Shown here: positions 2,440-21,884 of the stretch, piece after piece | Position numbering within the stretch: position 1 is the first letter of the stretch | Layout: each line of letters opens with the position of its first letter | DNA from: Bacteroidota bacterium | GTDB taxonomy: Bacteria; Bacteroidota; Bacteroidia; B-17B0; Aurantibacillaceae | DNA length: 64,000 nucleotides | Assembly: GCA_043719555.1 (NCBI GenBank) | Contig: JAYSTR010000085.1 | Span: 672-64,671 of the forward strand | Direction: 5' to 3' | Notes under the pieces: model-generated | What the model saw: only the letters and a program-made list of their open reading frames with translations | The model's database searches: none | Told to the model about the DNA's origin: nothing | Program-made: the position numbers and the translations under genes

Positions 2440-5289
2440 TTGATTTTTTTTTATTTGGTCATATTTAAAAATGTATCGGCTCAGCATCCAGCTTATTTTA
2501 TTCTTGGAGAAAATCAGTTTAGAGGTATTCAAATTTATGATGTCATTCAAGATAAAGCTTTAAATTATTGGTTTGCAACAAACGATGGCATTTATTATTT
2601 TGATTATCATACCTACGAAAAAATAGAATGTGATAAAGATAAAAGTAATTCTGTTTTTAATTTTGTCAAAAATAATGATGGAACAATCTATTGTCATAAT
2701 TTAAATAATCAAGTTTTTGAAATTAAAAATAAAACCTGCAATTTATTTTACGAACTAATGAAAGAAGAATCTAGCTCTGATATTAGTTTAGCTATTTCAG
2801 ATGATGGTGATTTAGTTGTAGGTGCAAGAAAAATAATTGTGCTAAATAATAATGGAATTGTTGTTAGTAAATTTAATTTTAGTAATTGTTATTTAGGGCA
2901 AGCTTTTACCGATAAGGATAAAAAACTGCATTATCACTTTGGTAGTATGGATTCTGTTTTAGTGTACTCTCATAAAACTTTTTCTAAACATAAATTAAAT
3001 TTATCTAACGATAGATTACAATCAAATGCTGTTTTAAAATTCTTTAAAATTAATAATCAAAATTATGCATTAGATCTTTTTAATAAAGTATTATATAAAT
3101 ACCAGCCATACACATTTGAATTAGAATCTTTACCGAACAATAATTTGTTTGGTAGAAGTGGATCTGTAAGGATTTATGAAGTAGGAAATGATATTTGGGT
3201 AGCTGGCACTTTACCTGGTGTTTTTTATATAAAGGATAATTTAGTTGAAAATAATTATGGGATTAATTATAATGACTATTTTATATCCGATATTTTTAAG
3301 GATACAGAAGGTAATATTTTACTTAGCACTTTTGATAAAGGAGTGATCGTTGTTCCTGATTTAAAGACACCAGATGTAATTAATACTTTTCATAATGATC
3401 CAATAGTATCATTGTATTCTGATAATAAATTAGGTTTATTACTTGGCTCATCAAAAGGAAAATTGATGAATTTTAATAATAAAAAAATAGTTGATATCAA
3501 TACAAATGGTAAAAGACCTATTGAAGCAATTTATGGTTCATTAAACTCAAATTTAATTTTATTTGATGATGGGTATATAAGAGGGTACAATAAATTAACA
3601 GGTGATATATATAATATTGCGCTTGGCTCGTTGAAAGATGCTGTATTTTTTTCTGATCGTGATTTTTATTTAGGTACTAATCTCGGAATTCTAAAATGTC
3701 ATTGGGAAAACGGAAATAATTTTATAATTGAGAGTATACCGAACTTAAATTATCGGATGTATGACTTAGAGTATAATTCTAATAGTAAATGTTTATACGC
3801 ATCTACTTCCAATGGAATGTACATTATTGATTCTATTGGTAGAAGCAGAAAAATTGAATACTTAGGTGAAAGTATTTATCCGACAAGTCTTAGTTTTAAT
3901 GATGATAAAATTTATGCTTGTGATAAAAAAAATGGCATTTTAGTAATTAATCAAAATAAAGTAACCTCTGTTATTAAACCTATTGTATTTGAAAAACAAT
4001 TGGTTTTAAATAAAATTATAATTCATAATAATAGCATTATCGCTAATTCATCTAATGGTTTTTATCAATTTGATTTAAACGGTAAAGTATTAAAATCATT
4101 ACATACTGTATTTGGATTCAATTCAAAACGAGTAATAGATTTTACATTTCACCAAAATAACCTTTGGATTAGCCATTCTGAAGGTGTACAACAAATTCAT
4201 TTAAATTCAAATCAATTTAATGGATCTAAACAAACTATTCGAATTAATAAAATTATTGTAAACGATATAGAAAATACTCATTTAGAAAAAAACAATTTTA
4301 ATAGTGAACAAAGAAAAATACAATTTAGTTTAACATTTCCAACCATAAGAAATAGAGAAACAATACGCTATCATTATAAGTTAGTAGGTTATGATTCGAA
4401 TTGGAATATTAATACCGAAGATGCAAATCAAATAATTTATAACTCATTAGCTTCTGGTAGTTACACGTTTCAAGTTAAAGCTGAAAATCAAGGTGTGTTT
4501 AGTGATGTTGCTTCTTATTCATTTAGTATAGATTATCCATTTTATTTTAGATGGTGGTTTATTTTAATAGTAATTGTCTTATTTATTGCCGTAGTATTTT
4601 TTATTTATCGTTGGCGTTTATCTATTCAACAAAAAAAAATGCAACAAATTAATGAATTGAACGCTTCTAAATTAACGGCTATTCAATCTCAAATGAACCC
4701 TCATTTTATTTTTAATTCACTAAATTCTATTCAGGATTTAGTATTAAAGGGCGATGTAGAAAACTCCTATTCATACATTACTACATTTTCGAATTTAGTG
4801 AGGCGAACGTTGAGTTATTCAGAAAAAGACTTTATTGATTTTGAACAAGAAATAAAATTATTGGAAATTTATCTATCATTAGAAAAATTACGTTTCAAAA
4901 AAGATTTTGAATATGAAATAGTATACAATGATGTGGATGATATTATGCTTCCTCCCTTATTGATACAACCATTTATTGAAAATTCGTTATTACATGGATT
5001 GTTGCATAAAGAAGGTGAAAAACGATTAAAAATATCGTTTAGTTTAAAAGATGTTTTAATATGTGTGATTGAAGATAATGGTGTGGGGCGCGAAAAATCA
5101 AAAGCGATTAAATTACGTCAAAAAAGCGAACACGAATCTTTTTCAGGAAAAGCAATTCACAAACGTTTCGAAATTTTAAGTGATGTTTTTGAAGGAAATT
5201 TTGGTTACGTGTATGAGGATTTATATAACAATGATGAAGCGATTGGCACCAAAGTTACGTTGTCTATTCCTGTAAAACATAAGTTTTAA
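2440..5289 (+). CDS. Sensor histidine kinase, LytS/YehU type, with periplasmic beta-propeller and Y_Y_Y region
   Basis: Y_Y_Y-like YHYKLVGYDSNWN is followed by a TM helix (WWFILIVIVLFIAVVFFIY), the His_kinase box NPHFIFNSLNSIQ and a HATPase region (IEDNGVGRE). The start codon is uncertain; TTG is the only in-frame candidate. Confidence 0.8.
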   Translation: MIFFYLVIFKNVSAQHPAYFILGENQFRGIQIYDVIQDKALNYWFATNDGIYYFDYHTYEKIECDKDKSNSVFNFVKNNDGTIYCHNLNNQVFEIKNKTCNLFYELMKEESSSDISLAISDDGDLVVGARKIIVLNNNGIVVSKFNFSNCYLGQAFTDKDKKLHYHFGSMDSVLVYSHKTFSKHKLNLSNDRLQSNAVLKFFKINNQNYALDLFNKVLYKYQPYTFELESLPNNNLFGRSGSVRIYEVGNDIWVAGTLPGVFYIKDNLVENNYGINYNDYFISDIFKDTEGNILLSTFDKGVIVVPDLKTPDVINTFHNDPIVSLYSDNKLGLLLGSSKGKLMNFNNKKIVDINTNGKRPIEAIYGSLNSNLILFDDGYIRGYNKLTGDIYNIALGSLKDAVFFSDRDFYLGTNLGILKCHWENGNNFIIESIPNLNYRMYDLEYNSNSKCLYASTSNGMYIIDSIGRSRKIEYLGESIYPTSLSFNDDKIYACDKKNGILVINQNKVTSVIKPIVFEKQLVLNKIIIHNNSIIANSSNGFYQFDLNGKVLKSLHTVFGFNSKRVIDFTFHQNNLWISHSEGVQQIHLNSNQFNGSKQTIRINKIIVNDIENTHLEKNNFNSEQRKIQFSLTFPTIRNRETIRYHYKLVGYDSNWNINTEDANQIIYNSLASGSYTFQVKAENQGVFSDVASYSFSIDYPFYFRWWFILIVIVLFIAVVFFIYRWRLSIQQKKMQQINELNASKLTAIQSQMNPHFIFNSLNSIQDLVLKGDVENSYSYITTFSNLVRRTLSYSEKDFIDFEQEIKLLEIYLSLEKLRFKKDFEYEIVYNDVDDIMLPPLLIQPFIENSLLHGLLHKEGEKRLKISFSLKDVLICVIEDNGVGREKSKAIKLRQKSEHESFSGKAIHKRFEILSDVFEGNFGYVYEDLYNNDEAIGTKVTLSIPVKHKF

Positions 5290-13000: not shown

Positions 13001-16000
13001 TTTGCCGCAGCAATTTTCTCAAAATCTATAATAAACTCATTATCATCAGGCCATACTATTGATTTATCGGCATCAAGATTATTATCGTAAACTCCTTTTC
13101 CGGTTAATTTTACAGGGATTTCATACTCATAATAGTTATTTGTAAAGTCGGTACCTAATCGCACAAAAACACTAACATCGCCATCATTTAATGGTTGATC
13201 ATTTAATTTTTCGGCATGCATAAATAGTTTCATTTTTTTAAATGAACGTACATCTAATTCTGTGTTTTTAGTAATTGCTCTGCTGTCGCCATCCTTTAAG
13301 CTGCATACTCTTAACGATAAAGCTTGCTCATTTAATAAGGTTTGATTTGTTGTTTGTGCATTTTGTTGTTGTTCTATTTTTGGAGGCAATACATAGTTTA
13401 CAGGTGTTTTCGATCCATTTTCTTGCAAGCTTACACCAGATACATCAAACGTTGTTGTGTTATCATCATTGGCAATGTATTCGCCTGGTTTTAATAAATC
13501 GTATGCATATCGTCTCCAATCACTTCGTACTAATTCAAAACGGGCTAAACGACAGATAATAGGTTTATCAAAGCCTTTCATAAATACACGCATAAAACGA
13601 ATAGAGTTAAACCCTTCTATTTCTCCAACGGATGATTCAAATTCGCTTACAGGAATTTTAAACTGGTACCATTTTACAGTTTTTTGAATATTATCAATGG
13701 TTGCATTTCCATCAGTAACGTTAACAATATAGTTATGTCCCACATTTGCTGGATTTAAATCCTGAGGCGAAATTTTCACATGGTATTGGTAATAGTTTTC
13801 AACTTCATTTAAGGTATTGTCTTTATTAATATCCTCAATATTTGGAATGTTTGATGCTGCGCTTGGTATAGATTTATCTTCGTATTGATTTTCAGTTGGA
13901 CTATTGCCTTCTGGTCCATTATATTTTTTATATCGTCTAATTGTATTTCCTTCTTCTGCGCTTAAACCATCAAATTTTGAAGCACTTCTAAAAAACTGAT
14001 AATTATCTGAGCTTGGGTCATTACGGGCAGCGTCAACATCAGTACCTGTTGCTCCAGGAAACGAATTTAAGTCGGTAATAAAATTTTTAAACTTTCTTGC
14101 TTCCGCTGTATCTGATAAGCCATCATAGCCAACATCCTGAAAAGGTCTATCATTATTATCGTTTACAAATGAGTTAGAAACGGGTGATATTAATGGTGAA
14201 CTTCCAATATTAGATTCGATGACTGGTAAACTTGAATTGGCTGTGCTTGCACCAGGAACACCATTTTCATACATCATTTTCCCATCTTTTAAAATATCTT
14301 CGCTCACGTTACCTAAGTTAAAATACATATCTCCACTTGGCAAACTCCCTGAATTCATATCAGGGTAGGTAGTCGAATTATAATCACTATTAAACGGATC
14401 CATCATCCAAAACTGAATATACTCTACATTGGCGGCCTGAAAATCATTGGTTTCAATACGACGCATAATACCGCCCCAACGCGTGGATGGATCTTTTAAT
14501 CTTCCATTTGATAAAATACCACTCGATTTTGCTAAAGTATTTGGCTTTACATCATAATTATAAGGTCCACGCTCTCCTGGATAAAAAGCCATATCTAAAA
14601 CTGATAATACAACTGGTTGGTTGTTAGCCGGTGTTTTACTAGGGAATAATTCTGTTTCTAAAACCTGACGCATGAAGTTATTAGAATAAGTTTCTTTAGT
14701 TATGTTACTTGGCTTTGAACTATTACTTGTTCCGTAAAAAATCGGATCAATGGTGTACCAGTTAAATTGCGCACGGTTTTTACCTGTATTTATATCGTCA
14801 AATAATGATGCTTCTGGAAACAAACGAGGTTGGCCTTGAGGTATACTTGCCAATTGCCATGCACTAGGGCTTTTTAAATCGATTAAAGAAATACTTCCTT
14901 CAAAATCATCAATGTATGAATTTCCGCTTTTTCCAATAGCTTTGGAATTACCTGGTATTAACTGAGCAAATTCTCCCTGAGTAGTAATACTGCTCATTTC
15001 CTTAGTATTGATTAATGGTATTTTATCAATTAAACGGGTTAAAAAAGGTACGTCAGTTTTGTAGTTATAATCTACACCCCAAATAATATTTGATACAGGC
15101 TCATCACCAATATTTACTTTTTGGGTAATTGGTTTTTCATTTAAACGCAAAAATGTACCCCCTAAAGTTAAATCACGATTAACAATAAAATCTAAACGTG
15201 TACCCATTAAACTTTTTTGTTGCACATTAAATAAAGAGTTACTCTCTGTACTTACCTTAATATTAGCGCCTGAGTTTAAAATACTTTCGTTAATAATTTT
15301 AACACGCCCTAATGTATAATCAACTGTATAATCAACGTTTTCTGTTAATTTTTGTCCGTTAGCAGTAACCACAACTGAGCCTTGCGGTATGTTTAAGGCG
15401 TTTAACGAAATCTCTGATCCGGCCGATGATTTGTATGAACCCTTAATTTTGTAACGATTTTTTTCGGGTAACTGCATCGCGTTAGTTCTTGTTGAATCAT
15501 ACAATTCCTGAAAAATATATTTGTTGGCATTTGGAAAATCAGATGCAGCAAACTTTGATCGTAAGTTATTACCAAAAGGTTCTTTTGATGATAAATAAAC
15601 TCTTCCATTATTTGGATTAATTGTAAAATCTTTAATGAAGTCAAAAACACCATCTGGGCTTCTATCTCCATTCACATTTAATTTATCTAAATCCATTGCT
15701 TGCACTAATAACTTGCCATTAATAGCACCGTATGGAATATATGGAATATCAATTCCTGTTTCGATATTATTATAATAGATATCGCATTTAAAATCTTGAG
15801 CATTTAAATTGTATGCTCCTAAAGAATAAACGTTTTTCATCATTAAATCCCAATTACTGTATTTAGGATTTGTGTTTGAACCACTCTTTAATAATTTTAA
15901 GTATAATGGTCCAGATGTAAACTGATCGCTAAACTCACCTACTTGATAGTTTTTACCGTTATAGGTGTATTGGTAAGCAACTGCAACAGACTGATCATTA

Positions 16001-17481
16001 CTAATAGTTTGGTTAATAGAAATAAAACCCAAACGTGTGTTGTAGGTAAACTCAGTAGGATTTAATTTACGCGCGTTTTGATAAAACTCAAAATCACGAG
16101 CAGGAGTCATAAATTTACCTCCATTACAAGTATTACCAACATTTGCTTGTAAGTTGGAGGTTACTGCAGATGCATTTGCGGATAAACGCGGAGGCATTAA
16201 GTTATTACTAGTATCCGTTAAAATTTTATATAAATTATTGGCATTATTATCTGGAAAATCTCCTGGAGCATCAACAATTACAAAAATAGGATTTGTACCG
16301 CAAGTTGGGTCTCTTAAATCTTTATTAACGTGGGTTGAATCCTCTCCTAAATCAGTAAAGGCTGCGTAGCTTCGCACTTGCTCTGCATTACCAGATAAGT
16401 TAGAAACGTAAACCTCAATTTTAGTAATAACGATAGGCGTTGTAACAACGGGTAGAGTACTCATCCATTGGTCGTAATTATCTCTAAAATAATGTCCTAA
16501 GAAAAAATGTTTGTTAACCTCGTAGTTATCTGCACTAACCGAAAAATATTGTGTTTGTGCGCCGCCTTGTACCGAAACCTCTTGTTTTTTACCACGTTGT
16601 TGCGATAATAAAGCCGTTGCTGTTAAACGCCCAAACTGAAATTTAGTTTTAACACCAAATAAACTTTGGCTACCTTGTATTAACGATGAGTTTAAAGGTA
16701 AAGCAACGTTACCAGCTTCAATTGTTTTTAAAATTTCATCCTCGTAACCGTTGTATTCAATTTTCATTTGATTTTCCCAATCAAAAGAAGCCTCGGTATT
16801 ATAACTTGTAGAGATGCGTAATTTATCACCAATTTTACCAATTAGGTTTAATTGAATACGCATATTAAAATCGAAATTGGTAACCTTTTGCTGACGCTGA
16901 GGAATAGCAGGGTTTAAGGTTTTGTTTCGGTTTAATGCGAAAATTAACTCCGCAGTTCCTGCAGGTTTAATATCAACAGTGTTTCCACCAAAAATACGAT
17001 CAAATAACTCGCTATTAACTTGTAATTTAGGAACTAAACTTTTTTTATTTTGGTTTACTAAATCGTCTGCTTTGATTTTCGATTTCCAATGATCTTTAAC
17101 GGCTTGCTTAAATAATTGATCTTGGTAATCCTGAAACTCCACATAGGTTTCAGGGCGATAATCCATATTACCAATCTTTTGCTTAATGTCGTAGTTTCCC
17201 GTACTTGGATTGTATTCTGTTGATGTATTTACGTTTGCTGGGTTTTCTAAATATAATTTACTCTTATCATCATAATTTGGCTGACCGCCATTATTATCGT
17301 TAAAAGGAAAATGTAATTCGTCTTTGCCAACAATAGGGGAGTCTATTACGGTAGCAAATGGGCTTTTGCTATAGTTTGGTTTTGATAACGGATTGCTTTT
17401 AGCCTTAGAGCTAACTACAATACTCATTAACCCAGCCGAGCAAGTACCAATTACAAGAAATTTTATAACTCCTTTTACCAC
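10084..17481 (-). CDS. sprA: T9SS translocon / gliding motility protein SprA
   Basis: 2465-aa giant outer-membrane beta-barrel protein of Bacteroidota. Size and sequence character match SprA (Sov), and it sits next to ruvA. Confidence 0.9.
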   Translation of the reverse strand: MVKGVIKFLVIGTCSAGLMSIVVSSKAKSNPLSKPNYSKSPFATVIDSPIVGKDELHFPFNDNNGGQPNYDDKSKLYLENPANVNTSTEYNPSTGNYDIKQKIGNMDYRPETYVEFQDYQDQLFKQAVKDHWKSKIKADDLVNQNKKSLVPKLQVNSELFDRIFGGNTVDIKPAGTAELIFALNRNKTLNPAIPQRQQKVTNFDFNMRIQLNLIGKIGDKLRISTSYNTEASFDWENQMKIEYNGYEDEILKTIEAGNVALPLNSSLIQGSQSLFGVKTKFQFGRLTATALLSQQRGKKQEVSVQGGAQTQYFSVSADNYEVNKHFFLGHYFRDNYDQWMSTLPVVTTPIVITKIEVYVSNLSGNAEQVRSYAAFTDLGEDSTHVNKDLRDPTCGTNPIFVIVDAPGDFPDNNANNLYKILTDTSNNLMPPRLSANASAVTSNLQANVGNTCNGGKFMTPARDFEFYQNARKLNPTEFTYNTRLGFISINQTISNDQSVAVAYQYTYNGKNYQVGEFSDQFTSGPLYLKLLKSGSNTNPKYSNWDLMMKNVYSLGAYNLNAQDFKCDIYYNNIETGIDIPYIPYGAINGKLLVQAMDLDKLNVNGDRSPDGVFDFIKDFTINPNNGRVYLSSKEPFGNNLRSKFAASDFPNANKYIFQELYDSTRTNAMQLPEKNRYKIKGSYKSSAGSEISLNALNIPQGSVVVTANGQKLTENVDYTVDYTLGRVKIINESILNSGANIKVSTESNSLFNVQQKSLMGTRLDFIVNRDLTLGGTFLRLNEKPITQKVNIGDEPVSNIIWGVDYNYKTDVPFLTRLIDKIPLINTKEMSSITTQGEFAQLIPGNSKAIGKSGNSYIDDFEGSISLIDLKSPSAWQLASIPQGQPRLFPEASLFDDINTGKNRAQFNWYTIDPIFYGTSNSSKPSNITKETYSNNFMRQVLETELFPSKTPANNQPVVLSVLDMAFYPGERGPYNYDVKPNTLAKSSGILSNGRLKDPSTRWGGIMRRIETNDFQAANVEYIQFWMMDPFNSDYNSTTYPDMNSGSLPSGDMYFNLGNVSEDILKDGKMMYENGVPGASTANSSLPVIESNIGSSPLISPVSNSFVNDNNDRPFQDVGYDGLSDTAEARKFKNFITDLNSFPGATGTDVDAARNDPSSDNYQFFRSASKFDGLSAEEGNTIRRYKKYNGPEGNSPTENQYEDKSIPSAASNIPNIEDINKDNTLNEVENYYQYHVKISPQDLNPANVGHNYIVNVTDGNATIDNIQKTVKWYQFKIPVSEFESSVGEIEGFNSIRFMRVFMKGFDKPIICRLARFELVRSDWRRYAYDLLKPGEYIANDDNTTTFDVSGVSLQENGSKTPVNYVLPPKIEQQQNAQTTNQTLLNEQALSLRVCSLKDGDSRAITKNTELDVRSFKKMKLFMHAEKLNDQPLNDGDVSVFVRLGTDFTNNYYEYEIPVKLTGKGVYDNNLDADKSIVWPDDNEFIIDFEKIAAAKINRNETTNLDLVAIQKPFTEQDGNNKITVVGNPNLASIKSIMIGIRNPIDNGGLSKCVEVWVNELRLTDFTNKGGWATTGRVQAKLADLGQASLAATYSTPFFGSIEKKISERSREKNFLYDATTTLQLGKFFPEKWKVNVPVYYSYGQTIITPQFSPYDPDIKIDNPSISKELKKQIKENAQDKTTRKGYNFSNVKIDGLRKEGAKPMPWDVSNFSVTYAYNEVKRHNVNIQKSIIKSYRGALAYNYSINAKPWAPFKKSTNKIINNKWFALIKDINFTPLPSSFAFNVDLNRNYSELLNRDLTSFYTGSSDNLTKAQFNKTFLMSRNYTLQWNFTKNLKFDYNANNDGRIMESIDAIDTDSEKVQIRNNIIRKLGENTNFRHAANVNYQIPINKIPAFDFINSTARYSSSYTWSRRPFAQESVGNTIQNTNTKNLTGNFNMTMLYNKIPYFRRVNSGGGSSKGKSSSLLKAPKTKEDSLKPKKENNFKDIGEFLARGVMMLKQVSLTYQQTNGTGLPGFEPSSKYIGLDPAKNLAPGFGFIAGMNDSILRKSIDNGWLVQNTNQLTPYTTTKSNNFSYRANVEPHGSLKIEFNGTKTYGSNTSQYVRYGGDSLRNSDDRNKGYLFETPTNSGNYSISVFTLGKAFKDKNTKDGSSELFQEFLLIRPDVAKDLASKNGDSKGELLDIRKRTYYDGYSNTQQDVLMGAFFETYTGKKLRNNATDKMFKQIPLPNWTVTWDGLGKLKFMKKYFQSVTLRHSYRAMYTLGNFTNNNLFFDGNQDGYADNLSRVPVQSSATGQTANFNPKYNIQGATITEAFSPLIKFDVKFNKPGLSGNFEIKKDKTVNLNITGPQIIETRGREYVIGVGYRYPKLKINAIKIKGKPVESDLNFKLDLSYRRNMSIIRRINEEISTPTGGQNIISLKTAIDYQLTQNVNLRLFYDWVKTTPQTSNSFPTANTNAGFSLRFNLQ

Positions 17482-17488
17482 GTATTAG

Positions 17489-18082
17489 TTAAATATTTTT
17501 TAGCGCTGATTTTATCAGCAGTTCAACATTATCAGTAGATACACCTTGCTGTTTAATAGATTTTTCTATCGCTTTTTCGGCTGCCAATTTCTGAAAACCA
17601 AGTGTAACTAGTGCCATTAACGCCTCATCTTTATTTTTATTGTATGCAGGGCTTAAAATTTGAGAAATTCCACCTTCGTGTTTTCCCATTTTTCCTTTTA
17701 AATCAACCACAATACGCTGAGCCGTTTTTTCGCCAATGCCTTTAATGCTTTTTAATAAAGCGACATTGGCCGTGTTAATGGCTCCTGCAATTTCGGGAGC
17801 AGATAACGAGGATAGCATAAGTACGGCACTACCGCCACCAACACCAGATACCGAAATAAGCTTACGGAATAAATCACGCTCCTCGGCATCAAAAAAACCA
17901 AAGTACTTAGGATTATCGTCGCGCACATACACGCTTTCGATATATAATTTAGCCTGAGTAAGAGGTTGAATTTTGGAATAGGTATTTAGCGATATAGTAA
18001 CGCCATAACCAACCCCATGGGTTTCAATAACCACAAAAGCAGGGTTTAATTCAGCAATTTGACCAGATACGTAATTTATCAT
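17489..18082 (-). CDS. ruvA: Holliday junction branch migration complex subunit RuvA
   Basis: MINYVSGQI...VIETHGVGY N-terminus and the HhH motif KGIGEKTAQRIV. Confidence 0.9.
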   Translation of the reverse strand: MINYVSGQIAELNPAFVVIETHGVGYGVTISLNTYSKIQPLTQAKLYIESVYVRDDNPKYFGFFDAEERDLFRKLISVSGVGGGSAVLMLSSLSAPEIAGAINTANVALLKSIKGIGEKTAQRIVVDLKGKMGKHEGGISQILSPAYNKNKDEALMALVTLGFQKLAAEKAIEKSIKQQGVSTDNVELLIKSALKNI

Positions 18083-18281
18083 ACAAGAGTGTGAAAGTAA
18101 CTAAAAATGTACGAATTTTTAAATATAACAAGCATTTTATTGCACTGTAAATCAGTTGTTTGCAAATAAAACAGACGCTTGTTTAACAGCCATTTGTTAA
18201 TATAATTTTAATGATATGTTAATGTAAATAACATTTACGATGTTTTTTTTGTAAATTTGTTGAACTAAAAAATTAAACACT

Positions 18282-18914
18282 TTGGAAATAGTATTAGTTG
18301 TTACTCTTTTAATTGCCGGTTATTTATTAGGTTCGATACCAACAGCTGTTTGGTGGGGGCAAAAATATTACGGAATTGATGTTCGTGAATTTGGTAGTGG
18401 TAATGCCGGAGCTACTAATACTTTTAGAGTATTAGGCAAAAAAGCTGGTATCCCTGTTTTAATTATTGATATAGTAAAAGGTAGCGCTGCTGTGTTACTG
18501 GCTTTCTTTTCTACTTATGAGTTTGATAGCAATGAGTTTGTAAACTTACAATTAGCTTTGGGTATGACGGCTTTAGTTGGCCATGTGTTCCCGATTTTTG
18601 CAGGCTTTAGAGGCGGAAAAGGCGTAGCTACTATTTTAGGCGTAGTTATTTGCTTAACACCAATTACTAGCTTGTTAGTATTATTAGTGTTTTTAACGGT
18701 TTTATTAACTACTCGTTTTGTATCCTTATCATCTATTACGGCAGGTATTAGCTTCCCGATATTATTGAATTTAGTACTTAAAAACCAAAACCAAACTTTG
18801 ATTATTTTTTCGATTTTTGTGGCGGTATTATTAGTAGTGACTCACAAAAAAAACATTACCCGCTTATTTAAAAAACAAGAACCTAAGGTTAATTTGTTTG
18901 CTAGTAAAGCCTAA
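18282..18914 (+). CDS. plsY: Glycerol-3-phosphate acyltransferase PlsY
   Basis: GSIPTAVW, GSGNAGATN and FRGGKGVAT motifs. TTG start, with a TAAATTTG -7-like box at 18252-18259. Confidence 0.85.
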   Translation: MEIVLVVTLLIAGYLLGSIPTAVWWGQKYYGIDVREFGSGNAGATNTFRVLGKKAGIPVLIIDIVKGSAAVLLAFFSTYEFDSNEFVNLQLALGMTALVGHVFPIFAGFRGGKGVATILGVVICLTPITSLLVLLVFLTVLLTTRFVSLSSITAGISFPILLNLVLKNQNQTLIIFSIFVAVLLVVTHKKNITRLFKKQEPKVNLFASKA

Positions 18915-18934
18915 TTTTAAAATTATATATTATG

Positions 18935-18966
18935 AAAAAACCGAAGCTAATAGTTTCGGTTTTTTG
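18935..18966. terminator. Rho-independent terminator after plsY
   Basis: aaaaaaccgaa-gctaatagt-ttcggtttttt hairpin with a T tract. Confidence 0.6.
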
Positions 18967-19006
18967 TTTTTGTGAATAATGTTTTGCGACTACGCGCCCG
19001 TTTTTT

Positions 19007-19070
19007 ACCTGTCCAATTTATGCCTTTTTACGTTAACCCGCAAGAAATTGTGCTTAGGCGTTGTTAGCAG
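19007..19070 (-). repeat. attC-like site A (degenerate), immediately 3' of ORF 19079-19639
   Basis: On the coding strand: CTGCTAAC-AACGCCTAAGCA-CAATTT...AAATTG-GACAGGT. Its right arm (19037-19070) is homologous to 19816-19845. The partner arm is weak, and the predicted R' lacks GTT. Confidence 0.3.
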
Positions 19071-19078
19071 TTGTGGCT

Positions 19079-19639
19079 TTACACAGTCTTAGGTTTCCAG
19101 GTCTTGTCGAACGGTCGATTTTCGCCAGTTACGTTTCCGATGTCTATGGTTACTAAATTATTTGCAGAACCGCCGTTATTTGGTGCGTCCAAGATTATTG
19201 AAACAAGAATTAATGGAATAAAGTCAATATTATTGTCAACTAATAATTGAAATATGTCGTTACTATTAAATGAAATATTATTAAGTTGAACAATTGAAGC
19301 CACTTGTATTGAGTCTTTGAAGATTGACACTTTTTTACCTAAATGCTGTACAATCTCATATCTTGTGTCACCTATTGTGATTTCGTAATGCGGTTTAAAT
19401 CTAGTAAGCTGTGTGAACTGTCCAACTACGTTATTATATTTGATGTCAAATATTCTTTTGCGAAATGGTCTGAAACGGCGTTTAGCTTCTATTAGTTGTC
19501 TGCTGCCTTTATGTATTACAATATTATCAAATATTAAGAAGCCTGTATTTTCTCCTATGAATTTTTCATTGGTTTCATTTACAGTTATTATGTATCGTTC
19601 ACCAATTTCAAGACTTGGTTCTTTGATAATTATTTCCAT
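19079..19639 (-). CDS. Hypothetical protein (orphan, cassette-borne candidate)
   Basis: 186-aa ORF with an ATG start and no signal peptide. I recognise no family by eye. There is a weak resemblance to repeated beta-strand (LURP-one/tubby-like) patterns only. Confidence 0.55.
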   Translation of the reverse strand: MEIIIKEPSLEIGERYIITVNETNEKFIGENTGFLIFDNIVIHKGSRQLIEAKRRFRPFRKRIFDIKYNNVVGQFTQLTRFKPHYEITIGDTRYEIVQHLGKKVSIFKDSIQVASIVQLNNISFNSNDIFQLLVDNNIDFIPLILVSIILDAPNNGGSANNLVTIDIGNVTGENRPFDKTWKPKTV

Positions 19640-19671
19640 AAGTGTCGTGCTTGTGTTTTATCAAGCCATTA

Positions 19672-19845
19672 CTGCTAACGTTTTCGCAATTTGCTTCAGG
19701 CGGGTTGAAACCGTTTCTACCGAAATGCTTATAACAAAGCTAAATGTAATTAGCCAATTGCAAAAGAAAAATAAAAAAAGTTTTCTACCGCTTTTTGCAA
19801 TTGCTTTGATGTCTGCCCCGCTTGAGCAAATTGTGTGTTAGGTGC
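19672..19845 (-). repeat. attC-like site B: 174-nt nested imperfect palindrome between the two orphan ORFs
   Basis: The arms are 19674-19704 (gctaacgttttcgcaatttgcttcaggcggg) and 19816-19845 (ccccgcttgagcaaattgtgtgttaggtgc). They pair CTAAC/GTTAG, then an unequal spacer, then CAATTTGCT (9 bp), a 1-nt bulge and GCGGG. An inner inverted repeat, caattgcaaaag (19755-19766) / ctttttgcaattg (19791-19803), lies inside. Confidence 0.5.
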
Positions 19846-19865
19846 TGGCGATTAGCTCTTTCTAT

Positions 19866-20372
19866 TTATTTCTTTAGAAGATTAGAGTCCTTTTTCATGA
19901 ATGATGTTTGTGTTTTTTTAATTTCCAACAATATTGAATCTAAATTGTTTTTTCTTAACGCTTCAAACTGCTCGATGTTTATAGTTGTCGGATTATTTAA
20001 TTGTTTATTCGAGTAATAAATTGAAATAACTGTCGACAAAATAGATATTAAAATAGCGACTATAGCAAAATAAGTAGCTTGTATAGACGATTTTCTAGCG
20101 CTTTGTAATTCGTGAAATTCCAATAAATGAAAATAACCTGATTGTTCTAAGAAAAATGTCTGATTAGGATTAATTGGTGCATTTTGATTATTTCCACCTG
20201 GGCTTTCCAAAGATATATATAGTGCGGCAAAGAATTGTCTTAAAGCAAATTCTTCGTATTCATAGCCATTGTCCTTGAGATGTTTTTCTAATTCAGGAAA
20301 TTTAAATGGTTTGCCAATATTGTCTTTGCCGAATTGTAATACGGCAATATATAAATCATCATTTGTTTTCAT
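19866..20372 (-). CDS. Hypothetical single-pass membrane protein (orphan, cassette-borne candidate)
   Basis: The ORF track starts at the GTG at 20396. The ATG at 20372 (MKTNDDLY...) is more plausible because the GTG lies inside the flanking repeat. One TM helix (YFAIVAILISILSTVISIYY). Confidence 0.55.
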   Translation of the reverse strand: MKTNDDLYIAVLQFGKDNIGKPFKFPELEKHLKDNGYEYEEFALRQFFAALYISLESPGGNNQNAPINPNQTFFLEQSGYFHLLEFHELQSARKSSIQATYFAIVAILISILSTVISIYYSNKQLNNPTTINIEQFEALRKNNLDSILLEIKKTQTSFMKKDSNLLKK

Positions 20373-20392
20373 ATGCTTGTTGTTTAACGCTT

Positions 20393-20458
20393 GCACCTAA
20401 CTAGGTTATAGACGCTACTTTATAGCGCAAATCCCATCACCGTTAGTTGTATAGGTGC
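20393..20458 (-). repeat. attC/attI-like site C upstream of ORF 19866-20372
   Basis: A 66-nt element closed by GCACCTA (20393-20399) / TAGGTGC (20452-20458), with an inner CTAAC (20397-20401) / GTTAG (20442-20446). It overlaps two ~21-nt direct repeats. Confidence 0.35.
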
Positions 20459-20533
20459 TACTTTGTATCGCATAGTTATTTGTCAAATGTAATGGTTTTG
20501 TTATCGGTATCAAATAGTAAATTATTCAAAACA

Positions 20534-20566
20534 AAAAAGCTTCGAGTTATATACCCGAAGCTTTTT
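20534..20566 (-). terminator. Rho-independent terminator after eno
   Basis: aaaaagcttcg / cgaagcttttt hairpin directly downstream of the eno stop. Confidence 0.6.
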
Positions 20567-20582
20567 ACAATTTATAGTAAAA

Positions 20583-21884
<1,302 letters not shown>

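Follow-up and report, generated by a model that had tools for sequence, protein, structure and literature searches.

A probable attC-like cassette recombination site with an internal promoter consensus in an integron-like array of a Bacteroidota chromosome

What is the role of an imperfect palindrome of about 170 nt that separates two small co-directional genes between plsY and eno on a Bacteroidota chromosome? The element lies in a 64,000-nt stretch of contig JAYSTR010000085.1 (assembly GCA_043719555.1), which was analyzed as a whole and is called the window below. Among the products encoded in the window are SprA and a protein whose sorting domain is that of type IX secretion, and the local gene order is ruvA (minus strand), plsY (plus), open reading frame (ORF) 3 (minus), the palindrome, ORF4 (minus), and eno (minus). 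The original prediction had proposed a folded recombination site at gene ends, resembling the attC sites of integrons. In an integron, the cassette consists of an ORF and a downstream site that travel jointly, with the crossover at the G/TT end of the site (PMC5027507). We conclude that positions 19673–19843 probably represent an attC-like cassette recombination site of an integron-like system of Bacteroidota, a non-canonical integron variant in which the element would be active.

The site, termed type A, starts about 20 nt past the ORF4 stop codon and ends 33 nt ahead of the ORF3 start codon. On the minus strand, which is the sense strand of both ORFs, the left half consists of R″ CCTAAC (19842–19837), a spacer (aca), and L″ (CAATTTGCT-CA-a-GCGGG), followed by a conserved core. 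After the core, the right half consists of L′ (CCCGC-c-TG-a-AGCAAATTG), a spacer (cgaaaac), and R′ GTTAGCA (19679–19673); the crossover point would lie between G19679 and the following TT. The outer arms CTAAC (19675–19679) and GTTAG (19837–19841) pair and are followed by spacers of 7 nt (19680–19686) and 3 nt (19834–19836) and by a 9-bp stem (19687–19695 with 19825–19833). Further inward there are an unpaired T (19696), CA/TG, one mismatch, and GCGGG (19700–19704) paired with CCCGC (19817–19821). An inner inverted repeat (19755–19766 with 19791–19803) and a GAAACCGTTTC palindrome (19707–19717) complete the element, and all arms, spacers, stems, and repeats of the original prediction were recovered at the same coordinates. 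That prediction had made its case dependent on a stable long-range stem, and the plus strand does form one as single-stranded DNA (ssDNA), with −33.7 kcal/mol and z = −4.33, a value equaled by 0 of 200 shuffled sequences. The minus strand reaches −30.1 kcal/mol (z = −2.57), and in the strand-stability comparison the bottom strand is again the more stable one (−31.8 vs −28.4 kcal/mol for the top strand).

A scan of the 64 kb for the layout TAAC, spacer, stem, stem, spacer, GTTA returned this site as the sole strong match, while weak matches remained at chance (two observed vs 2.6 expected). In the window, a profile constructed without its sequence gave a single match, 19674–19841 (E = 4e-28). 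Fixed-pattern searches for the site arm in the window stayed at chance level, and a repeat search within the window found no repeat family, because the site is present there in a single copy.

The site was linked to a wider family through ORF3, whose homologues number only four, all of them metagenomic. Three are found in cassette contexts (loci L002, L003, and L004). The L003 homologue (73% identity) is preceded by the same site type as in the window, with compensatory changes in both stems (outer, AAGCTTGC/GCAAGCTT; inner, CATTTGCAAA/TTTGCAAATG), and L003 as a whole is an array of ORFs with GCTAAC...GTTAGC palindromes between them. The L002 homologue (63% identity) lies within an array of small co-oriented ORFs that also contains a hipBA pair. 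Its palindromes have the same layout in another sequence (TAAC aac AGGTTTAA ... TTAAACCT gccaaag GTTAGAA), and homology between the window and L002 is limited upstream exactly by GTTAG and downstream by agccacaactG[C/T]TAAC. We collected the family with the conserved core as search pattern. The core is carried by at least 120 metagenome loci and three genome loci, and about 90 of the metagenome ones are true type A sites. Among the carriers are a Bacteroidota metagenome-assembled genome with a four-cassette array amid housekeeping genes (L006) and two contigs with long cassette arrays (L007 and L008). The latter two (CAZPSQ01 contigs) are labelled ‘uncultured Brevifollis sp.’; they have a G+C content of 34–36% and the same site family as the Bacteroidota loci, so that either the contigs are misbinned or the arrays cross phyla.

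In all members, TAAC is followed by 3 nt, a stem arm, the conserved core, the second stem arm, 7 nt, and GTTA. In an alignment of 60 distinct sites (A1), the terminal TAAC and GTTA are invariant (59–60 of the 60 members), whereas the arms are conserved as structure: 95.3% of the cells pair, compared to 82% after shuffling and at most 42% with slid partners. All seven outer L-box pairs tested show changes on both sides that are compensatory, 91.6% of the L-box cells pair, and compensatory changes also occur in three of the ten pairs of the inner hairpin. The R and L boxes of the original prediction are thus structure-conserved with compensatory changes. Six loci (L016, L040, L050, L052, L060, and L115) combine the 5′ arm of one stem type with the 3′ arm of another, leaving an L box that cannot pair; such mixed arms may have arisen by homologous recombination of one site with another, or through chimeric assembly across the conserved core.

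The family members behave as cassette ends. A sense ORF of at least 60 codons lies upstream in 52 of 72 sites, ending at a median of 22 nt before the site, and in about 80% of the sites the coding sequences on either side have the same orientation. We analyzed the breakpoints of matches between different contigs (at least 250 nt with at least 90% identity) and found a cluster of 20 internal match ends at positions +3/+4 relative to the G of GTTA, and none at R″. Fourteen explicit pairs share the same ORF and site (up to 2.1–2.6 kb, 91–99% identity) and continue into unrelated sequence straight past GTTA; L011 and L070, for instance, have 2116 nt in common at 95.5% identity and diverge at this point. 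Since homology is interrupted solely past GTTA, each ORF moves as a unit with its site, and the same cassette occurs with differing downstream neighbours, which supports the attC-like interpretation of the original prediction. Another metagenome contig joins the same kind of site at the R box to a different upstream sequence.

A dispersed non-autonomous repeat in intergenic DNA, such as a miniature inverted-repeat transposable element (MITE) or an element resembling repetitive extragenic palindromes (REP) or bacterial interspersed mosaic elements (BIME), would also appear as a repeated palindrome of about 170 nt with inverted termini (TAAC/GTTA), but would not mark a cassette boundary. Depth above the flanks and assemblies that break inside the element point in this direction: in two sediment metagenomes, a unitig covering 19676–19835 has a depth of 19–21x compared to 5–7x in the flanks, and ends at the R boxes. 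We nevertheless give this explanation hardly any credence. The element is indeed repeated, but it is placed at gene ends, with fixed orientation and distance to them, in regular arrays in which ORFs and sites alternate; homology breaks only at the R′ end, the arms covary while the termini are invariant, and the 64 kb contain a single copy.

The conservation extends a little beyond the boundary itself. Cassette starts tend to follow GTTA[G/T]N[G/C]N[A/T/C]AA (e.g., GTTAGCGGTAAT, GTTATAGGTAAT, and GTTAGGTGCAAG), as does the attI-like junction described below, and conservation therefore reaches about 5 nt past the canonical 7-nt R′ motif. The cargo of the family includes a PF00144 beta-lactamase-family serine hydrolase, a glycosyltransferase, an S9 peptidase, a transglutaminase-like protein, and the hipBA toxin-antitoxin pair (L007 3746–5212, L008 899–7198, L119 3204–4964, and L002 5346–6873), which are larger and better annotated than the orphans of the window.

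Which enzyme could act on these sites? Among the loci fetched, a tyrosine recombinase adjoins a type A array in four, and six loci have a co-oriented recombinase followed by an array; L119, L083, and L084 were found via their sites and L129, L131, and L133 via the recombinase. In L129 (GCA_040384225.1, JAWVHC010000002.1), located on a 1.2-Mb contig, ten type A sites lie downstream of the recombinase. In L129, L131, and L133, a co-oriented array of small ORFs is found 3′ of the recombinase, while the upstream genes vary (dxs, phaC, and dnaK). The enzyme has 377 aa, of which about 100 at the N-terminus extend beyond the Phage_int_SAM_4 and Phage_integrase domains. Its score exceeds the cut-off of the XerA-type model NF040815 (230 vs 220 bits) but not that of the integron-integrase model TIGR02249 (205 vs 265), which it matches only as two pieces. 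In an alignment to VchIntIA (2A3V), residues 110–278 and 299–376 of the recombinase correspond to residues 11–179 and 242–319 of IntI4. There are thus 20 residues where IntI has 62, and the IntI-specific domain is therefore absent; against IntI1 the gap is about 41 aa. The nearest solved relative is the archaeal XerA (5HXY), and relatives bear the NCBI name ‘site-specific tyrosine recombinase/integron integrase [Bacteroidota]’. The enzyme resembles IntI in belonging to the Xer/IntI branch and in heading an array, followed by a promoter-like block and a junction ending in GTTA, but it differs from VchIntIA in lacking the additional domain around patch III and in its extra N-terminal domain. Integron platforms of Treponema and the Chlorobi group have an integrase that is co-oriented with the cassettes, and the array-head recombinase shares this orientation.

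Between the recombinase, or a Bro-N gene following it, and the first cassette, these six loci have the conserved junction TATAAGCTAGTTAG.GGTAA, which is preceded by a hairpin and a TAnnTTTG block. A recombinase and an attI-like junction are thus located at the head of such arrays, in line with the attC-like interpretation, and the junction together with the promoter block beside the recombinase recalls a complete integron. The gene with the Bro-N domain is found in L119 (2243–3070) and L131 (11147–11974). We also observed an ORF of 88–90 aa without Pfam match directly upstream of the recombinase in L119 (828–1100), L133 (9721–9987), and L134 (1055–1321); by eye it resembles the N-terminal extension of the recombinase itself and may have arisen by domain duplication or play an accessory role. 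A second, more divergent tyrosine recombinase without the additional domain (341 aa) is encoded in L064 (4496–5521; contig Ga0208884_100004). It occupies the distal end of an array spanning at least 13 kb and converges on the cassettes, unlike the co-oriented clade at the array heads.

The center of the site, which the original prediction had regarded as a variable terminal structure, turned out to be the conserved core and to contain a promoter consensus. In the window it spans 19735–19764 on the minus strand, with a −33 box TTTG (19764–19761), 18 nt, and a −7 box TAGCTTTG (19742–19735). It points at ORF3, with a predicted start near 19730 and a 5′ untranslated region of about 90 nt. TAnnTTTG is the −7 box of the sigma-A promoter consensus of flavobacteria (PMC9723704). 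TTTG-N18/19-TAnnTTTG occurs on the ORF-sense strand of 54 of the 60 sites, compared to none on the antisense strand and 0.04 in shuffled sequences, where it should be noted that the search pattern held part of the −7 box, but neither the TA nor the spacing nor the −33 box. The position of the motif is fixed at 55–58 nt before the G of R′. The whole window contains only ten matches on both strands, two of which are the putative cassette promoters, i.e., this one and the leader consensus described below. The conserved core thus has the features of a Bacteroidota sigma-A promoter directed toward the next cassette, and being aimed downstream, it would let each cassette supply a promoter for its downstream neighbour. 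Canonical cassettes differ in this respect, as they are mostly promoterless and expressed from the common promoter Pc.

The immediate surroundings of the window site form an accessory insert. The window was compared to the close relative L135, whose DNA is 87% identical over 3.4 kb. Positions 31–3400 of L135 correspond to window positions 15550–18919 and positions 3463–3651 to 20577–20765, and its gap between plsY and eno amounts to 62 nt with one common terminator. Window positions 18920–20576, between the convergent plsY and eno, are therefore an insert of 1.66 kb, which contains an attI-like leader, two cassettes, and two sites. In the window, separate terminator hairpins for plsY and eno flank the insert (18936–18965 and 20533–20566), while L135 has a single bidirectional terminator for both genes (3401–3462) with a sequence unlike those of the window.

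The first cassette (approximately 19679–20400) carries ORF4 on the minus strand (19866–20372), whose product, counted from the ATG at 20372, has about 168 aa and a single predicted transmembrane helix; a GTG start listed at 20396 overlaps the attI-like junction and is probably not the true start. ORF4 has no family match, and an exact look-up gave no copy on record. The second cassette (approximately 18980–19678) carries ORF3, likewise on the minus strand (19079–19639; 186 aa). Searches of both orphans with Pfam, NCBIfam, and PADLOC yielded nothing useful beyond a weak Tubby_C/LOR-like match of ORF3.

At the array head, directly ahead of ORF4, an attI-like junction is located on the minus strand at 20390–20413 (TCTATAACCTA followed by GTTAGGTGCAAG, with GTTAG at 20401–20397). 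The string TATAACCTAGTTAGGTGCAA at 20393–20412 matches the junction conserved in L129, L133, L131, L119, L084, and L083. Upstream of it and directed toward ORF4 lies a leader promoter consensus (20484–20514, minus strand; TTTG-N19-TACATTTG), in the region that the TAnnTTTG block occupies in the related loci; it would be the counterpart of Pc, with transcription expected to start near 20479. The gene eno and its terminator sit immediately upstream of the array head. Since junction and leader promoter consensus are present and the enzyme is absent, the window retains an attI-like head without its enzyme, and the array may be a remnant whose recombinase was lost or never present. A possible relic of the last codons of the recombinase beside the eno terminator (TTTGAATAATTTA vs TTTGATAATTTA), together with a ATTTGATA block, is proposed only tentatively, given that the L135 terminator holds a similar string. 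The leader also contains a direct repeat upstream of the junction (GCTACTTTATAGCGCA, 20411–20430, and GCTACTTTGTATCGCA, 20454–20473), forming on the minus strand two units of about 44 nt, one ending in CTAAC and the other in GTTAG; the repeat might represent two binding units for the recombinase, or a short site that has degenerated. The 50-nt interval 20397–20446 (CTAAC...GTTAG) was considered as a third, short attC and rejected, given its weak fold (z = −2.2) and a GTTAG end that fits the attI-like junction.

The other end of the array is occupied by a second attC-like site of a different sequence type (18974–19068, minus strand). The original prediction had noted a direct copy of the right arm at 19037–19070; this similarity is real, but it is gapped and limited to CCCGC, AAATTGTG, and TGTTAG, and it corresponds to the R″–L″ half of the second site. 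Along its full length this site is homologous to an intact one in L008 (2953–3051; 99 nt, 74% identity). A stable fold is formed by the L008 copy (−21.1 kcal/mol and z = −4.8 for the bottom strand), whereas a long-range fold is absent from the copy in the window (z = 0.2 and 0.7). R″ is kept (GCTAAC, 19068–19063), but the L box pairs at only five of seven positions, and R′ reads ATTATTC (18980–18974) instead of GTTATAA, with GTT changed to ATT. The last site of the window array is decayed.

How far does the type A site correspond to a canonical attC? Both have inverted R″/R′ cores with AAC...GTT, in the window as in the family, L″/L′ arms that are kept as structure rather than as sequence, and a cassette boundary between G and TT of R′ with differing neighbours beyond it. 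As in canonical attC sites, the bottom strand is the more stable one in 49 of the 60 sites (mean −2.0 kcal/mol), and a conserved A·C mismatch of the sense strand becomes a G·T pair on the other strand. The sites and arrays also resemble those of sedentary chromosomal integrons, e.g., the Vibrio cholerae repeats (VCRs), with long sites that are similar within a lineage, small and mostly orphan ORFs, and toxin-antitoxin cassettes. Xer-dependent dif modules of Acinetobacter plasmids (pdif) have short, double-stranded, dif-like sites of 28 bp in inverted pairs. They have in common with the present system that small gene modules in varied contexts are bounded by sites of Xer-type recombinases, but the latter has folding palindromes of about 170 nt in head-to-tail arrays behind a dedicated recombinase.

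Several observations weigh against an attC-like site. The unpaired central spacers of the original prediction are present, but they measure 3 and 7 nt throughout the family, so that in 57 of 57 sites the folded bottom strand bulges by 4 nt on one side only, namely its AAC arm, whereas canonical spacers have 5–6 nt per arm (PMC5027507). The sites are also longer, with 165–180 nt compared to 57–141 bp (PMC5027507). Canonical attC sites have two or three extrahelical bases, 6 bp apart, opposite the AAC of the bottom strand, but none is fixed here. Single bulges are found on either arm (24 vs 13) or are replaced by 1x1 mismatches (49), and in the window the bulge T19696 lies on the AAC arm of the bottom strand; the predicted extrahelical base of the L box thus exists as a bulged T, but not as a conserved feature. 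The 64-kb window encodes no tyrosine recombinase (best E = 3.3 in tblastn with IntI1), and with a dead terminal site at least ORF3 is probably fixed in place. Excision or circle junctions were not found in assembled contigs, the sole data examined, which is not evidence of their absence. The covariation is equally compatible with ssDNA and RNA, and the conservation of the −7 box is partly a matter of ascertainment, since part of this box was in the search pattern. From the bulge position we had at first read an attC polarity inverted relative to the ORFs; this was ruled out, because the bulges are unconserved and both the homology breakpoints and the strand-stability bias indicate the usual polarity.

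Alternatively, the element could function mainly in transcription or as RNA, i.e., as a terminator or insulator combined with a promoter and a structured 5′ leader, without recombination. A conserved promoter consensus between two co-directional genes, covarying arms, and hairpins that could block read-through would all suit such a role, yet we consider it very unlikely as the whole explanation. The sense RNA would fold worse than the antisense DNA strand, as seen from the strand bias and the A·C to G·T exchange, and there is no T-run terminator. A structured RNA, as considered in the original prediction, finds no known counterpart in Rfam 15: with permissive E-values over 18800–20700, only sub-threshold noise and no match near a gathering score was obtained, and the best match overlapping the site has 22.5 bits compared to 60 required. 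Moreover, a role in transcription leaves the invariant TAAC/GTTA termini, the shuffling at GTTA, and the linkage to recombinase and attI-like junction unexplained. A promoter can be compatible with recombination and is included in our explanation as an attC-like site.

A further alternative is that the element is an ordinary attC in a cluster of attC sites lacking integron-integrases (CALIN), recombined by a canonical IntI encoded elsewhere, with the Xer-like enzymes being incidental. Integrons have been reported in Bacteroidota (PMC9668308, PMC8618304), CALINs are common, with off-target insertion as one proposed origin, and the R and L boxes, the GTT boundaries, and the bottom-strand bias all fit a canonical attC. 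The window array itself resembles a CALIN in having cassettes and sites on a chromosome between housekeeping genes with no recombinase in reach and, unlike in a complete integron, no adjoining intI. We nevertheless judge this alternative unlikely. An IntI with the additional domain was not found among the approximately 139 fetched loci, and all six array heads have the co-oriented recombinase without this domain, followed by the conserved junction. Spacer geometry and extrahelical bases deviate from the canonical pattern, and complete integrons were almost absent from Bacteroidetes in IntegronFinder surveys, which rely on the IntI-specific domain. A CALIN comprises two or more attC sites with no integrase nearby; of the two sites in the window, one is intact and the other decayed, and an attI-like head accompanies them. 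Because this head is kept, the array looks like a platform minus its recombinase, or a transplanted head, rather than like stray attC sites.

For the attC-like site of an integron-like system, we propose the following mechanism. A cassette would consist of an ORF and the site after it. One strand of the site, most likely the one antisense to the ORFs, would fold on itself in vivo, with TAAC and GTTA pairing into the R box and the variable arms into the L box. A tyrosine recombinase would then cleave within AAC/GTT, and strand exchange with a second site or the attI-like junction would excise, insert, or reorder cassettes. The acting enzyme would be the 377-aa Xer-like recombinase without IntI-specific domain that heads the arrays in related genomes, and the promoter in the site core would drive the next cassette. 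The window array would accordingly be read as an attI-like leader with promoter, ORF4, the intact site, ORF3, and the decayed last site, inserted between eno and plsY, in which the intact site may still be active.

The definition of integrons, the classic gene-capture system, calls for an integrase that has a special domain and for cassettes without promoters. For the window alone, our results provide the annotation of a 1.66-kb accessory insert with two cassettes, one intact site, and one dead site. Beyond the window, we tentatively suggest, at somewhat less than even odds, that the family represents a widespread integron analogue of Bacteroidota with a Xer-like enzyme that lacks the domain reading extrahelical bases, an asymmetry based on the 4-nt bulge instead of extrahelical bases, and a sigma-A promoter in each site that would allow expression of a cassette at any place in the array. 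A literature search, which was incomplete and is thus not proof of novelty, found no description of this pairing of recombinase and site. If the suggestion is true, the system would escape surveys in which integrons are recognized by the IntI-specific domain. If confirmed, the IntI-specific domain would not be needed for cassette recombination via folded sites, and the site would offer a compact promoter and recombination module for the genetics of Bacteroidota. Confirmation would also open a large mobile and mostly orphan gene pool in an abundant environmental phylum, including hydrolase, beta-lactamase-family, and toxin-antitoxin cassettes.

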